63,397 nucleotides of DNA, taken from positions 1 through 63,397 of the forward strand of contig JANJXX010000001.1 of NCBI GenBank assembly GCA_024720975.1, in the 5' to 3' direction. Made by a program: the position numbers and the translations under genes. Below the pieces are notes generated by a model. That model did no database searches. It was not told the DNA's origin and was given only the letters and a program-made list of their open reading frames with translations. Positions 34,483 to 48,387 of the stretch are shown here, in pieces; position 1 is the stretch's first letter; every line of letters starts with the position of its first letter. The stretch comes from Thermoproteota archaeon (GTDB taxonomy: Archaea > Asgardarchaeota > Njordarchaeia > Njordarchaeales > Panguiarchaeaceae).

Positions 34483-35907
34483 TTAGTGACCGCAGGATTC
34501 ATAATATTCTTGAACATAAAACCGTCTGTATTCAGGGTATAGTCCTTCTAGGCTATAGTATAAAACACCATTCAGGGGCTCTCTTGCACCTATTGAGGTT
34601 AGTATCGCTAGTGATGCAATTGCTATATTTGTGAAAATCACCGATGGTTGTATATTAAGACAGCTCTCGTTAATCTGAGGATCCATCTTTTCTCCGAGAT
34701 TAATCGAGTGGAATGGACAGTATGTCCTCAAAGGAAGATAAAATGTCTCATGACCATGAAGTAACTCTACACCTGCTGAAATAAGAGGTATTCTGTTTTC
34801 AGTGGCAAATCCAGCTATTTCTTTCCTTGCTGCCCATGTGTCCACACCCTCAATGATCAATGTCATATCCTTTAATTTATCCTTTATTTCCTCGAACCTT
34901 GCCTCCTCATACCTAACGAGAACATTATCATGAATCATTCCTTGAAAACGCTCTGCCATAACCTCAGCTTTGGATAGACCTATAGTGTCTCCCCAATAAA
35001 TTACCTGCCTGTTGAAATTTGTTTGATCAATTCTGTCTGGGTCTATGAATACTACTTCCCTTGTTTCTAACAACTTTAAATTGATCATTGTAGCAAGTTG
35101 TATCGCATAGAATGTACCCAAGGCTCCCGCACCGACCACTGCAATACTTTTGATTCTCTGAGGAGCCGCACGCAGTGGAGGAATGCCTCGGAAGGGAAAT
35201 GCTACTTCAAGTGCAGGTGTAAATTTCATATATGCTCCAAGATCTTCCTCAGTGAATCCACCCTGAATCTGCATTACTATTTCACCCAGTGAAAGTCCGC
35301 TAGCGAGTAGAAAGAGGTGCTCTATGGGTATCCTAGAGGTCGCCTGCCTTTGAACTCTCACGAAAATATCACTAACAACTCTTCTAATCTTGTTAGTACT
35401 TCTGTGCAGTATTTCGCTCAACGCATATAATTTCAATCCATCACAAAAGACGACAATATATGTAGGAACTTTTATCAAACTCCTCAATCTCCACGTGAAC
35501 AATTTTATATTCAGATTTGTTGATAGATCAAGCACTACTTTATTCTCTGACTCATCCTCGCTTATGACATTTTTTACCAGATTTAAAGCTGATTCCGACG
35601 CGAGGTTTATGTGTATAGAGTTAAGCTCAATACTGTAGTTGTCTAAGTATCTTCCAAAATGCTCTTCAACGAATTTTATGGTTTCTCTGAAGACATCACC
35701 GGAGGCGTTTTTAAATAGAATTTTAAAATCCCTAACCTGCCTCGATCCTATTATGTATATTCTGCCAAAGCCTACCGCAATAGCAGATATTAAACTAATG
35801 TACGAATAGGGGTCATTTGCTATTATGAATAAACTCGTCTTTTCGAGCTTTCTTTGGTCCCACCAACTCACTCTTAACTGTCTATCAAAAATCCCTATGC
35901 TCCCCAC
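34483..35907 (-). CDS. E1-like enzyme with an N-terminal inactive and a C-terminal active ThiF/MoeB adenylation domain
   Basis: N-domain FDRQLRVSWWDQRKL...AVGFGRIYII lacks GxGxxG. C-domain has VVGAGALG, IDPDRIDQTNFNRQ, GLSKA, GVDTWAAR and ESC. Start GTG 35907 follows GGGTGA (the ORF track uses 35922). Confidence 0.88.
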   Translation of the reverse strand: MGSIGIFDRQLRVSWWDQRKLEKTSLFIIANDPYSYISLISAIAVGFGRIYIIGSRQVRDFKILFKNASGDVFRETIKFVEEHFGRYLDNYSIELNSIHINLASESALNLVKNVISEDESENKVVLDLSTNLNIKLFTWRLRSLIKVPTYIVVFCDGLKLYALSEILHRSTNKIRRVVSDIFVRVQRQATSRIPIEHLFLLASGLSLGEIVMQIQGGFTEEDLGAYMKFTPALEVAFPFRGIPPLRAAPQRIKSIAVVGAGALGTFYAIQLATMINLKLLETREVVFIDPDRIDQTNFNRQVIYWGDTIGLSKAEVMAERFQGMIHDNVLVRYEEARFEEIKDKLKDMTLIIEGVDTWAARKEIAGFATENRIPLISAGVELLHGHETFYLPLRTYCPFHSINLGEKMDPQINESCLNIQPSVIFTNIAIASLAILTSIGAREPLNGVLYYSLEGLYPEYRRFYVQEYYESCGH

Positions 35908-35914
35908 TTGGAAT

Positions 35915-36724
35915 TCACCCAATTTTTACTTTCGATAGGATCTCATTTAAAAGCTCCCTATTGGCGAATATCGGATCCTCGTCAAGATCTCTAATGACTA
36001 TTTTTGCATCAACCTCATCGGAATTTCTTCCGTAAAGGAAAACCTTACCCTCTATTTGATCGTGATTATTTACGACAACACTTACTACGCAACGACGTGA
36101 TACTTTGATACTAGTAGTAAATATGGATATTGTTCCGAAGTATCCTCTGAGAACTTCTGGGAGGGCCTTTATTGTGTATAGGTGAGCATACCAAGTCGTA
36201 AAGAATACTTCATCATCTATTTCTTGGCGTAAGTTTAACTCTATACAGAGAGAGCCAAAGCATATTTTAAATCCTCGGAGCCCCTTATCTATTATGGGTT
36301 CTGCCCTGTACTCATTTAAAATTTCTGGGCCAAGCCTTTCGTACTCAATCACGGCCGGCAAGTACTCCCTCGGAAATGATTGGTAAATCATGTTTATATT
36401 CTCTAGATCGATGCGAGAATGGAAACACTTCAAGTCACCATGACTATGCCACATTCCCAACAGTATCCAGTTTTTGTTGTGCTTTCGAATTTCAACAAGC
36501 GCATCAGAAATTTCTAACATTCCCTCCGAAGGGATATATACATGCGTTGCCGAGGCCTCCTGGCGGGGCAAGTACATGTCTACTATTTGGAAATCTGGAT
36601 TATGATCACTTTGAAGTAATTTACCCAGAGCAAATGCATACCACTCTTTTTTAATTCTCCTGCAAAGTAACTTTGAGATCTCAAAAACTTTTCTCGATAC
36701 TGTTATTGTAAACACAATCCTCAA
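35915..36724 (-). CDS. JAB/MPN+ (JAMM) metallo-isopeptidase
   Basis: KEWYAFALG (catalytic Glu) and GMWHSHGDLKCFHSRID (HxH-x7-S-x2-D). Confidence 0.9.
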   Translation of the reverse strand: MRIVFTITVSRKVFEISKLLCRRIKKEWYAFALGKLLQSDHNPDFQIVDMYLPRQEASATHVYIPSEGMLEISDALVEIRKHNKNWILLGMWHSHGDLKCFHSRIDLENINMIYQSFPREYLPAVIEYERLGPEILNEYRAEPIIDKGLRGFKICFGSLCIELNLRQEIDDEVFFTTWYAHLYTIKALPEVLRGYFGTISIFTTSIKVSRRCVVSVVVNNHDQIEGKVFLYGRNSDEVDAKIVIRDLDEDPIFANRELLNEILSKVKIG

Positions 36725-47195: not shown

Positions 47196-47748
47196 TCACC
47201 GACGCGGTCTCTTTTCTTTTTGCAGTCAGTTTTTCTGCTAGCTCTAGAACTTTCTTTACCTCCTTTTTAATTCTCTCCCTTTCGGATGGCCAGGAGAATA
47301 CATCCAATGCAAGAATTTCTCTTAACCGCTTTATGATGTTGTTAGCTGCATCTATAAATTCATCAAGAGCTTCTGGTCTTGATTTTGATATACTTTCCCT
47401 TACGGCATGCAATTCTTCTGCCAAGTTATGAGCATCAATTATGTAACTTACAGCCTGAAGCACGAGATAGAGGTCCTGAGCAGTCTTAAGTGCATAATCG
47501 ATTCTATCCTTTGATTGCAGCTTCCTGATTAACTCAAAGTTCGATTGTATAACTCTTAGTGCCTCTAGAAGGGGCATTTTTGGCAGGTAATCAAATGAGA
47601 TTTTATCACCAATTTCCAACTTTCTGACGTTAACTACCGGAATCGAACCCTGTTCAAACCACCACCACTCTATCGATACCTCCCTAACAAAGCTTATTAT
47701 CCGCATTAATGAGTCCATCATATATTCGTAAGATTTTTCAACACTCAT
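47161..47748 (-). CDS. Unknown alpha-helical protein, paralogue of 39464-39997
   Basis: WWWFEQGSIPVVNVRKL...LPKMPLLEALRVIQSN; lies between the two ESCRT-III-like genes. Confidence 0.75.
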   Translation of the reverse strand: MSVEKSYEYMMDSLMRIISFVREVSIEWWWFEQGSIPVVNVRKLEIGDKISFDYLPKMPLLEALRVIQSNFELIRKLQSKDRIDYALKTAQDLYLVLQAVSYIIDAHNLAEELHAVRESISKSRPEALDEFIDAANNIIKRLREILALDVFSWPSERERIKKEVKKVLELAEKLTAKRKETASVIERVVQEEEKS

Positions 47749-47751
47749 ACC

Positions 47752-48387
47752 CTACTCCTCAACACCATACTTTTCCATAAGTTTTTGAAGCTCCTTTCTC
47801 GTAACCTCCTCTGGTTCTTTAACCCCATACTCTTCCTCGAGTTCCTCTAACACCTCCGAAGTTGCAGTCTCTTTCATAAGTTCCTCGAATGCTTCTGCAT
47901 GTTCTGTGATAGTCTCGACAAACTCTGAGACAACAGTTGAACTACTCATAACTTTTTCCCACGCCGTCACAGGGTCCACCCCTCTCTGAACTGTATCAAC
48001 AACTATATCTCTAAGATTTTCGAGTAGCATTAATTGCGCTTCATAGAGCTTTGTTTGTGAGTCAAGCATTTTTATTCTGCCAAGTTTCGCCTGCGAAACT
48101 TTCTTGGATAGCTTAAGCTCCTTCAACATGCTCCTAATCTTCCTAGTATTATTCTCTCTCCAGCCTCTTATGATTGCTATTTTTTCCTCAAAGAGTTCAT
48201 CAATACTTCTTGCGAGCCTATCTCTTTCTATGTCTGGTAGCTTTGAGACACCCTCAGAAATTCTCCTTAAAGTCTCTCTTATGGCCTGCGGGCTCAATTT
48301 CTGCTTGCTAGTGATTTCGACGAGATCTCTAAGAGCTCTAACTTCATCTATGATTTGTTTCCCAATGTTCTTTTTCCGTCCAAACAA
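47752..48387 (-). CDS. Divergent ESCRT-III-like coiled-coil protein (start TTG 48387, MFGRKK)
   Basis: FGRKK N-terminus, basic central hairpin, acidic tail with duplicated L..L.E.YGV.E helices; first gene of the operon. Confidence 0.55.
   Translation of the reverse strand: MFGRKKNIGKQIIDEVRALRDLVEITSKQKLSPQAIRETLRRISEGVSKLPDIERDRLARSIDELFEEKIAIIRGWRENNTRKIRSMLKELKLSKKVSQAKLGRIKMLDSQTKLYEAQLMLLENLRDIVVDTVQRGVDPVTAWEKVMSSSTVVSEFVETITEHAEAFEELMKETATSEVLEELEEEYGVKEPEEVTRKELQKLMEKYGVEE

Follow-up and report, generated by a model that had tools for sequence, protein, structure and literature searches.

Two operons lie side by side in a stretch of 63,397 nucleotides, hereafter the window, from the genome of a member of the Njordarchaeia, hot-environment Asgard archaea. 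One of them is ESCRT-like (module A) and the other encodes a Ubl-tagging system (module B). Ubiquitin-ESCRT coupling and scaffold E3s like UFL1 are regarded as steps toward eukaryotic cell organisation. The arrangement therefore raises the question whether the two operons form a coupled Ubl-ESCRT system with traits of the UFM1 pathway, as was originally predicted, or are separate neighbours. The reading that we favour, with a probability of about 0.58, is that they are two separate modules which have been neighbours since the ancestor of the genus, module A being a non-canonical ESCRT-like operon and module B a self-contained Bil-like conjugation operon. In the text, g1 designates the genus of this genome (five genomes) and g4 its sister genus (seven genomes).

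Organisation of the locus and content of the ESCRT-like operon

The ORF map confirmed that both operons are on the same strand, with an inverted deoC alone in the gap. Module A consists of ten co-directional ORFs on the minus strand (48396-39464). Module B follows on this strand (38513-34483) as four overlapping or abutting ORFs, in the order Ubl, E2-like protein, JAB and E1. The gap of about 950 bp contains, on the plus strand (38542-39285), the gene of a DeoC/LacD-family aldolase (Pfam E-value 3.9e-11). According to the orientations obtained by tblastn (n=5), deoC is located between both modules in every g1 genome; it is convergent in four of the five and on the strand of both modules in the remaining one (G013).

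A short divergent promoter region (38505-38592, no strand assigned) was predicted by reading the sequence directly. It includes a TATA-like box, TTTAAA (38531-38536), about 27-32 nt 5' of the Ubl ATG (38504). Since this distance matches the usual spacing of archaeal promoters, the arrangement fits a leaderless transcript of the Ubl operon from a promoter of its own, a caveat that had already been attached to the original prediction.

Among the module A products, that of gene 3 (46611..47195, 194 aa) is a probable divergent ESCRT-III (Snf7-like) subunit. When compared by hhalign with ten Asgard Snf7 proteins, it gave a probability of 86.4% (E 4.7e-6) with 117 columns in register; no module A gene, gene 3 included, passes the Pfam Snf7 model. 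Gene 4 (45406..46608) encodes an AAA ATPase whose architecture is CdvC/Vps4-like, as judged with Pfam and NCBIfam: an N-terminal helical domain, a single AAA domain (Pfam AAA, 9.3e-37) and a weak Vps4_C match (1.8e-4). The NCBIfam CdvC model matches it end to end at 215 bits, far under the 650-bit cut-off, and its core scores nearer to the D2 domain of Cdc48 (242 bits with the CDC48 D2 model versus 215 bits with CdvC); its best PDB sequence matches are the D2 domains of VAT/p97. Genes 2 (47161..47748, 195 aa, helical) and 10 (39464..40027, 187 aa) were recognised by alignment as paralogues. Gene 2 carries a WW..G..V.VR motif, and its family is restricted, within the order, to g1 and three g4 genomes. 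Gene 1 (47752..48396, 214 aa), which is syntenic in all g1 genomes and in one g4 genome (G006), encodes a helical protein that gave no Snf7 signal by hhalign. The syntenic genes 5 (44242..45399) and 6 (43577..44233) encode a helical protein of 385 aa and a hydrophobic protein of 218 aa, the latter probably a multi-pass membrane protein to judge from its sequence alone. Gene 7 (41922..43577, 551 aa) combines a Zn-ribbon with an FG-GAP beta-propeller (Pfam FG-GAP_3, 2.6e-10), and gene 8 (41315..41911, 198 aa) is invariably found upstream of the gene of a winged-helix (WH) protein, WH450, described below.

Together with WH450, the CdvC/Vps4-architecture ATPase and at least one divergent ESCRT-III subunit, the probable membrane protein, the Zn-ribbon/FG-GAP propeller and the paralogous helical pair would make up a membrane-remodelling machinery. 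A search of the whole genome revealed no Snf7, EAP30 or UBC at Pfam level, whereas EAP30 was above cut-off in five out of five other Asgard genomes. Canonical Snf7 is likewise found in none of the five g1 genomes, against all seven of g4, and canonical UBC was not found in g1. In a related Njordarchaeia lineage, Panguiarchaeum, a survey reported that VPS4 has been lost and that Snf7 is absent (PMC12411855). It is a notable feature of g1 that a divergent ESCRT-III/CdvC-like set has been kept in an Asgard genus where canonical Snf7 was not found.

The winged-helix protein of the ESCRT-like operon

WH450 is encoded by the ninth gene of module A (39999..41351, minus strand, 450 aa; the starts of its orthologues map near 41318). 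The tandem winged-helix character attributed to it was borne out by an AF2 model (pLDDT 88.9), in which an N-terminal helical domain (residues ~9-175) is followed by four tandem winged helices (~180-395) and C-terminal helices. A protein of UFL1/DDRGK1-like shape is encoded within an ESCRT-like operon, which is in itself notable.

The resemblance to UFL1 was supported by the leading structural matches. In the PDB, the top Foldseek match was a UFL1/DDRGK1 chimera (8b9x, E 1.5e-7, 248 columns), followed by 8ohd and 9gy4, and the top row of the ESM Atlas was an Asgard cluster with Pfam DDRGK, E3_UFM1_ligase and PCI (TM 0.43, 277 aligned). By VIA, the UFL1/DDRGK1 arrays were aligned over 216-237 residues with Z 7.8-8.0, but SelB, ESCRT-II and PCI proteins tie with UFL1 in these Z-scores; the Vps36/Vps22 WH pairs of ESCRT-II reached 7.3 (human ESCRT-II chain 2zme_B, 119 residues, rmsd 4.4). 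Profile-profile comparison by hhalign was equally weak for Asgard UFL1-like proteins (31%) and Asgard Vps22 (21%). The match to Pfam PF09743 (16.2 bits) is under the 23.2 cut-off, and among eight WH450 orthologues just three match this family (best E 1.3e-4). A DDRGK Pfam match is also weak, and a WH450-family profile did not find UFL1 among PDB sequences.

A consecutive winged-helix array is common to WH450, UFL1-DDRGK1 and the Asgard UFL1/DDRGK/PCI proteins. The genuine Asgard UFL1-like proteins, however, are longer (~790 aa), occur above the Pfam cut-off in 172 out of 400 genomes and form a family distinct from WH450. Relative to these eukaryotic and Asgard arrays, WH450 has another N-terminal helical domain, lacks the Zn fingers and the CTD, and aligns with a TM below 0.5. 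Its gene lies inside an ESCRT-like operon, unlike the canonical Asgard UFL1-like genes that were checked: their distance to the Snf7 genes is 50 kb or more in the three single-contig genomes that allow it to be read, and in two others they are on separate contigs. The other likeness is to Vps22, Vps36 and Vps25 of ESCRT-II and to the archaeal wH proteins (arCOG09748), in which tandem winged helices are found beside ESCRT-III and a Vps4-like ATPase, as for WH450; the latter differs from both by carrying four winged helices in one chain together with a 175-aa helical domain, and it gave no EAP30 or Vps25 sequence signal. Archaeal ESCRT loci repeatedly include wH proteins (PMC10936438), and WH450 would most likely bridge module A subunits, like those of ESCRT-II and of other archaeal ESCRT loci. 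As for its proposed role as the missing E3, none of the tests that were run points that way.

The Ubl-tagging operon

The Ubl (38082..38513, minus strand, 143 aa) belongs to no Pfam family. Its AF2 model (pLDDT 87.5) adopts a beta-grasp fold into which a helical segment of ~60 residues is inserted. Nearly all matches in an exhaustive structural search were beta-grasp chains of the ubiquitin family, and those at Z 4-4.8 span the whole of ubiquitin. Among the best 50 rows of three structural searches, ubiquitin, NEDD8, ISG15, FAT10, ThiS and others were all tied at Z 3.4-4.8 and UFM1 was not represented; BilA (8tyx_A) ranked fifth. As originally noted, the stop codon directly follows GRVG, so that this Ubl has no tail. 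The G[RH]VG motif is both conserved in g1 and confined to it, and tails of 5-10 aa are present in the other genomes; a tail follows MGG or GGG in g4 and DEGG in distant relatives.

The E2-like protein (36725..38092, 455 aa) and its relatives were aligned, which delimited an N-terminal extension of ~270 aa and a C-terminal domain bearing the invariant motif H347-P348...R357..C360.G362, with His-Pro 12 residues before the Cys. The protein matches nothing among Pfam, PADLOC or PDB sequences; compared by hhalign with Asgard UBC, it has the HP and the Cys in register, at a probability of 31%. The JAB/JAMM metalloprotease (35915..36724, 269 aa) has an HxHx7Sx2D motif that is intact by eye. Its Pfam matches, to Prok-JAB (3.2e-5) and JAB (1.7e-4), are each just under cut-off, and generic PADLOC JAB models match it. 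The last gene encodes an E1 of ThiF type (34483..35922, 479 aa). Whereas two ThiF stretches are found in its relatives, the Pfam ThiF match here (2.6e-24, residues 259-449) covers the C-terminal half alone. This half is predicted to be the active ThiF-type adenylation domain, preceded by what is probably a second, degenerate domain in the N-terminal half. The best PDB matches of the E1 are UBA3, TcdA, UBA2 and UBA7, UBA5 being absent among the 26 matches, and with PADLOC it gave a weak BilD match (E 3.9e-6) in addition to many weak Cap2 models.

Mature UFM1 ends in RVG, and the Ubl of module B shares this end. If module B and WH450 were truly homologous to the UFM1 pathway, in the place of UFM1, UFC1, UBA5 and UFL1, this would also account for UFL1 being the top structural match of WH450 and for the weak PF09743 and DDRGK matches; moreover, an Asgard origin has been proposed for UFL1 and DDRGK1 (Picchianti et al., PMC10183829). 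We consider this homology highly improbable. The RVG terminus is a g1-specific derivative of GG rather than a UFM1 trait, because in the sister genus and the distant relatives the Ubl has GG followed by a tail. No match to Ufm1 (PF03671) was found genome-wide at E<=1, and the tied structural matches of the Ubl show no preference for UFM1; a UFM1-like nature of the tag is not supported. The E2-like protein keeps an HPx...Cys arrangement and does not match PF08694, the UFC1-type E2 lacking HPN; the sole UFC1-like match in the genome is another gene (C11:295640), 250 kb away and near-universal in the order. The E1, with its extra N-terminal half and UBA3 and UBA2 as nearest PDB proteins, is at variance with the short, single-domain, homodimeric UBA5. 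The protease is a JAB, and the genuine Asgard UFL1-like proteins belong to a different family. This candidate is largely refuted.

Module B is closer in its organisation to the bacterial BilABCD operons. In Types I and II of these, the gene order (Ubl, E2, JAB DUB, multidomain E1) is the same. The conserved Gly of the Ubl is followed by a short, non-conserved and JAB-trimmable tail (0-10 residues), E3s are absent and the Ubls carry varied extra segments, as in module B. The published BilABCD operons have the order Ubl-E2-DUB-E1 and at most nine residues after the conserved Gly (Chambers et al., 10.1101/2023.09.26.559546; Hör et al., 10.1101/2023.09.04.556158). Module B differs by its archaeal host, the internal helical insertion of its Ubl, the 270-aa extension of the E2-like protein and the order of the catalytic residues in the latter, with His-Pro upstream of the Cys as in canonical HPN, in contrast with the Cys...His of the CEHH type in Bil. 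At the sequence level, PADLOC did not place the operon among Bil systems: the BilD match of the E1 is weak, those of the JAB are generic, and the Ubl, the E2-like protein and their distant relatives match no model.

Relation between the two modules

Module A was found in 8 and module B in 7 of 400 Asgard genomes. Each of the five g1 genomes has them side by side, with the gene order of module B unchanged, and g1 synteny continues past the block on both sides; the adjacency is therefore no more than background collinearity. Within g4, module B occurs in two genomes (G004, G005) and module A in three others (G003, G006, G009), with both modules in none. Assembly gaps alone are an unlikely cause of this split because a benchmark gene was found in six of the seven g4 genomes. 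The contigs of G004 and G005 have the four-gene order of module B without ESCRT genes, and no module B gene lies in the 12.8 kb downstream of the last module A gene of G003. In distant archaeal metagenome-assembled genomes, the same order is followed by a gene of ~281-298 aa and then by a Ser/Thr kinase gene, again with no ESCRT neighbours. Since g4 and distant archaea have the four genes in this order with no ESCRT genes beside them, module B is autonomous, and what links the two modules is their being neighbours within one genus. In g4 the modules are unlinked and in different genomes; outside g1 this is largely the independent pattern that the original prediction had named as refuting it.

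What the analysis shows directly is which genes are present, how the Ubl and WH450 fold, which motifs are conserved and how the modules are distributed among genomes; the catalytic steps and the selection of targets are inferred. The E1 would adenylate the terminal Gly of the Ubl and pass the tag on to the E2-like protein at Cys360; the 270-aa extension of this protein would then pick the targets with no separate E3. JAB would trim the short tail of the Ubl; with a tailless Ubl, as in this genome, it would mainly remove conjugates.

We regard functional coupling of the modules as rather unlikely. In such a system, the Ubl machinery would modify the ESCRT-like machinery or be recruited by it, with WH450 serving the E2-like protein as UFL1-like scaffold E3 or adaptor, in an independent, non-canonical version of the ubiquitin-ESCRT link of Asgard archaea and eukaryotes. 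Two such rare modules, fixed at a distance of 1 kb in five out of five g1 genomes, are unlikely to be neighbours by random placement; deoC invariably separates them and runs in their direction in G013. The genus is devoid of canonical Snf7 and UBC, module B has no recognisable E3, and the best matches of WH450 are the arrays of a scaffold-type E3. Ubiquitin and ESCRT genes are linked in canonical Asgard genomes, where Ubl conjugation is encoded, as here, beside ESCRT-III, Vps4 and winged-helix genes (Hatano et al. 2022, PMC9192718; Makarova et al. 2024, PMC10936438); here, however, the components come from other, rare families and only a single genus has them linked. Coupling also has to contend with the separation of the modules in g4, the ESCRT-free neighbourhoods of distant module B relatives, the synteny running past the block, the separate predicted promoters, the convergent deoC of four g1 genomes, the distance of canonical UFL1-like genes from Snf7 and the large extension that the E2-like protein brings itself. 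No sign was found that the operons work together. A more elaborate version, in which g1 lost canonical Snf7 and UBC and a Bil-like Ubl system was recruited beside the non-canonical ESCRT operon, with WH450 as the scaffold-type E3 or adaptor that brings the Ubl to targets in ESCRT or at the membrane, appears improbable. If true, Ubl-ESCRT coupling would have originated independently here, and a UFL1-type E3 would have a working model in a prokaryote; should the modules cooperate at all, they would offer a compact, reconstitutable system in which to study the linking of protein tagging to membrane remodelling.

Module B could instead be a Bil-type accessory system for antiviral or stress defence, placed near module A by an integration or rearrangement hotspot and not by shared function. 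We hold this alternative to be less probable than not. The gene order, the tail-trimming logic, the rank of BilA, the weak Cap2 and BilD matches of the E1 and the patchy distribution are consistent with it, as is an insertion or rearrangement of ~9-11 kb directly downstream of the E1, seen in this genome only. On the other hand, PADLOC recognises neither the Ubl nor the E2-like protein nor their distant relatives, the HP...Cys order departs from the CEHH type, none of the neighbouring genes was recognised as a defence gene, and fixation in all g1 genomes is unusual for a defence island. Apart from its function, module B is notable as a rare, Bil-like tagging operon in archaea. The E2-like family at its centre has no existing family model and counts 29 clusters among 1.84 billion representatives.

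Two neighbouring operons and their linkage

On contig C11 of the host genome (1.36 Mb, 81% complete; its close relatives are, as deposited, Guaymas Basin Candidatus Njordarchaeota MAGs), ten co-directional ORFs running from 48396 to 39464 on the minus strand form an ESCRT-like operon, here called module A. Four overlapping or abutting ORFs from 38513 to 34483, also on the minus strand, encode the Ubl, an E2-like protein, a JAB protein and an E1 (module B). A DeoC-family gene on the plus strand (38542-39285) lies between them and runs convergent to the 3' end of module A. The ORF map, the strands and the deoC family thus bear out the arrangement described in the original prediction, as well as its caveat about a separate Ubl-operon promoter: a TTTAAA box, read from the sequence, is located about 29 nt 5' of the Ubl ATG, within the short stretch that separates the divergent Ubl and deoC genes, and the Ubl operon therefore has a promoter-like element of its own. 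Metatranscriptome mapping (three hot-spring sets and one contig set) yielded 7 reads, far too sparse to interpret, all of them from run X3 and on module-A genes (0 on module B).

The two modules are best read as autonomous units that are neighbours in one genus. Functional coupling between them, as implied by the supercluster originally proposed, draws on the synteny of the block from two upstream genes through E1 in 4/4 other genomes of the host genus (32-77% identity), on the constant presence of deoC between the operons in all genomes of that genus, and on the great rarity of both modules in Asgard archaea (8/400 and 7/400 genomes). However, the synteny in this genus runs past the block on both sides, the host genome only adding 9-11 kb after E1, and in the sister genus (G003-G009) the modules are found in different genomes and are not adjacent on the available contigs. 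There, module B was detected in G004 and G005 and module A markers in G003, G006 and G009, with both together in 0 genomes. Missing sequence would probably not account for this disjoint pattern by itself, since 6/7 genomes of the sister genus yielded a benchmark gene. No module-B gene was present in the 12.8 kb downstream of module A in G003, nor any module-A gene in the 8.8 kb upstream of module B in G004. The adjacency holds within the host genus; outside it, among genomes that are incomplete and mutually related, we observed the independent phyletic patterns and absence of linkage that had been named beforehand as refuting. Coupling is still a live minority hypothesis, which we consider unlikely.

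Some features of the block vary between genomes of the host genus. In G013, deoC (L011 18617-19318, on G013:C3) shares its strand with both operons; 24 bp separate it from the tenth gene of the ESCRT-like operon upstream and 136 bp from the Ubl downstream, and transcription could there run through the entire block. In the window, the extra or rearranged DNA relative to G011-G013 (about 9-11 kb at 25200-34400, including cbiMNQ) lies directly downstream of E1, which in those three genomes is immediately trailed by homologues of the window genes at 21.5-25.1 kb.

The divergent ESCRT-like operon

None of the module-A proteins passes the Pfam Snf7 model, and Pfam gave no match to Snf7, EAP30 or UBC anywhere in the host genome; all three are present in 5 other Asgard genomes. 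When a 194-aa module-A protein was aligned by hhalign with ten Asgard Snf7 proteins, a probability of 86% (E 4.7e-6) was obtained, in register. The AAA ATPase (45406-46608) matches NCBIfam CdvC over the full length of the model, with a score of 215 bits that falls far short of the equivalog cut-off; there is also a weak Vps4_C match, but the core of the protein obtains higher scores with Cdc48/VAT D2. In the PDB, Cdc48/VAT D2 domains (E ~1e-103) outscore every Vps4 chain among the best 60 matches. This protein may be a Cdc48-D2-derived or a fast-evolving Vps4 analogue. The other genes code for two paralogous helical proteins, a Zn-ribbon/FG-GAP propeller and proteins without an assigned family; a hydrophobic protein of the module is probably embedded in the membrane. 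In one genome of the host genus, a third copy of the helical 'par' family (a 261-aa ORF, G012:C128:4523-5008) is unlinked to the operon.

Canonical Snf7 was found by Pfam in 0/5 genomes of the host genus (G000, G010-G013) versus 7/7 of the sister genus, and canonical UBC in only 1/14 genomes of the order, one with 12% contamination. In the host genus, the divergent set of module A is the only ESCRT-III-like system detected. For Panguiarchaeum, a related lineage within Njordarchaeia, VPS4 is reported to have been lost and Snf7 to be absent (PMC12411855). The best reading of module A is an ESCRT-like operon of non-canonical type whose winged-helix scaffold has the shape of UFL1. The block was also considered as the degenerate remnant of a canonical Asgard Ub-ESCRT cluster, a reading rejected on two grounds: canonical Snf7 is kept throughout the sister genus beside a patchy module A, and relatives of module B hold the identical four-gene order in other archaeal MAGs.

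The winged-helix protein

The ninth gene of module A encodes a winged-helix protein, WH450 (39999-41351), which had been proposed as a UFL1-like E3 or adaptor. Its AF2 model, built with eight orthologues (pLDDT 88.9), comprises a helical domain (~9-175), four winged helices (~180-395) and C-terminal helices. When this model was compared with the PDB by Foldseek, the UFL1/DDRGK1 chimera 8b9x ranked 1 (E 1.5e-7, 248 columns), followed by ribosome-bound UFL1 (9gy4, 8ohd), SelB WH1-4 (E ~5e-5) and ESCRT-II (E 0.03). VIA-align Z-scores were all tied, with 8.1 for proteasome-lid PCI subunits, 8.0 and 7.8 for UFL1, 7.3 for ESCRT-II and 7.0 for SelB. In an ESM Atlas shape search, the first rank was taken by an Asgard cluster of 788 aa that bears the PCI, E3_UFM1_ligase and DDRGK families (TM 0.43, 277 aligned), and the next ones by eukaryotic UFL1, SelB and an unnamed Methanobacteriota family.

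At the sequence level, Pfam PF09743 gave 16 bits, under its cut-off of 23.2, with matches in 3/8 orthologues, and hhalign probabilities were 31% against Asgard UFL1-like proteins and 21% against Asgard Vps22. Comparison of the WH450 profile with PDB sequences returned nothing useful, and a word-based homologue search gave three clusters, of close relatives only. The predicted resemblance to UFL1 therefore stands for shape and not for family membership: judged on its model, WH450 is a UFL1/DDRGK1-shaped tandem winged-helix scaffold, and it is not demonstrable as a member of the UFL1 family. The operon in which it is encoded is at least as good an argument for a bridging role of the ESCRT-II kind.

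Genuine UFL1-like proteins of Asgard archaea measure about 790 aa and exceed the Pfam cut-off in 172/400 Asgard genomes, in agreement with the Asgard origin to which UFL1 and DDRGK1 have been traced (Picchianti et al., PMC10183829). They (L096-L119, family f24 and others) have a conserved N-terminal double CxxC Zn-finger region. In the three single-contig genomes with a readable distance, 50 kb or more separates their genes from Snf7 genes; in two other genomes the two are on different contigs. One genome of the host genus has a separate 626-aa ORF over the PF09743 cut-off (26.7 bits; G011:C149:8218-8553), and a 1266-aa ORF of another Asgard family (G022:C90:3802-4584) matches the WH450 profile with E 1.9e-8.

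The Ubl operon and its relatives

The Ubl (143 aa; AF2 model pLDDT 87.5) was aligned exhaustively with 48,161 PDB representatives, and the matches were almost exclusively beta-grasp chains (ubiquitin, NEDD8, ISG15, FAT10, ThiS, CysO), with about 70 residues aligned, C-terminus included, and Z up to 4.8. By this model, the protein is a beta-grasp with a ~60-residue helical insertion. UFM1 was absent from the best 50 matches in each of three structural searches, and BilA (8tyx_A) held rank 5 in Foldseek. A word-based search gave one cluster, of close relatives only. An Atlas feature search had suggested a phage tail-tube/Dit-like protein (score 0.94; window 38082-38504); this was rejected, as the exhaustive search with the confident model gave beta-grasp chains almost exclusively and no tail-tube protein, and the language-model features are probably a composition effect.

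The terminal RVG, taken originally as a UFM1 trait, did not hold up as such. In the host genus the Ubl ends in G[RH]VG, with tails of 5-10 residues in every genome but the host genome; in the sister genus it ends in MGG or GGG plus tail, and in distant relatives in DEGG plus tail. From this comparison, RVG is a locally derived form of a GG terminus. A separate UFC1-like E2, about 250 kb away, is found in 12/14 genomes of the order and, being near-universal, tracks neither module. True homology to the UFM1 pathway is effectively excluded.

The E2-like protein (455 aa) had no relative in Pfam, PADLOC, NCBIfam, PDB sequences or the Atlas, including a family profile against the PDB and an Atlas feature search. 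Its family has invariant His-Pro, Arg, Cys and Gly; in an alignment with Asgard UBC proteins, this motif falls in register with their HPN...Cys. Three clusters, of close relatives only, were retrieved by word-based search, and an all-against-all HMM search placed the family in only 29 representative clusters among 1.84 billion. The JAMM motif of the JAB is intact. The E1 (479 aa) carries an extra N-terminal half and is closest, among PDB sequences, to UBA3 and UBA2 rather than to UBA5.

The distant clusters of the E2-like family come from archaeal MAGs, in operons (L067 7437-15793; L070 4726-12928) with the order Ubl (178 aa, with a disordered N-terminus), E2-like (525-531 aa), JAB (606-653 aa) and two-domain E1 (506-520 aa). 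A fifth gene, of ~281-298 aa, and then one for a Ser/Thr kinase follow. The surroundings of these operons contain no ESCRT genes, and no relatedness was detectable between their fifth gene and that of the sister-genus operon. Bacterial BilABCD operons have the order Ubl-E2-DUB-E1, a conserved Gly behind which a short tail is trimmed off, and no E3 (Chambers et al.). Module B resembles them in all three respects but is a separate family by sequence; by analogy, it is best read as a rare archaeal conjugation operon that would work like Bil.
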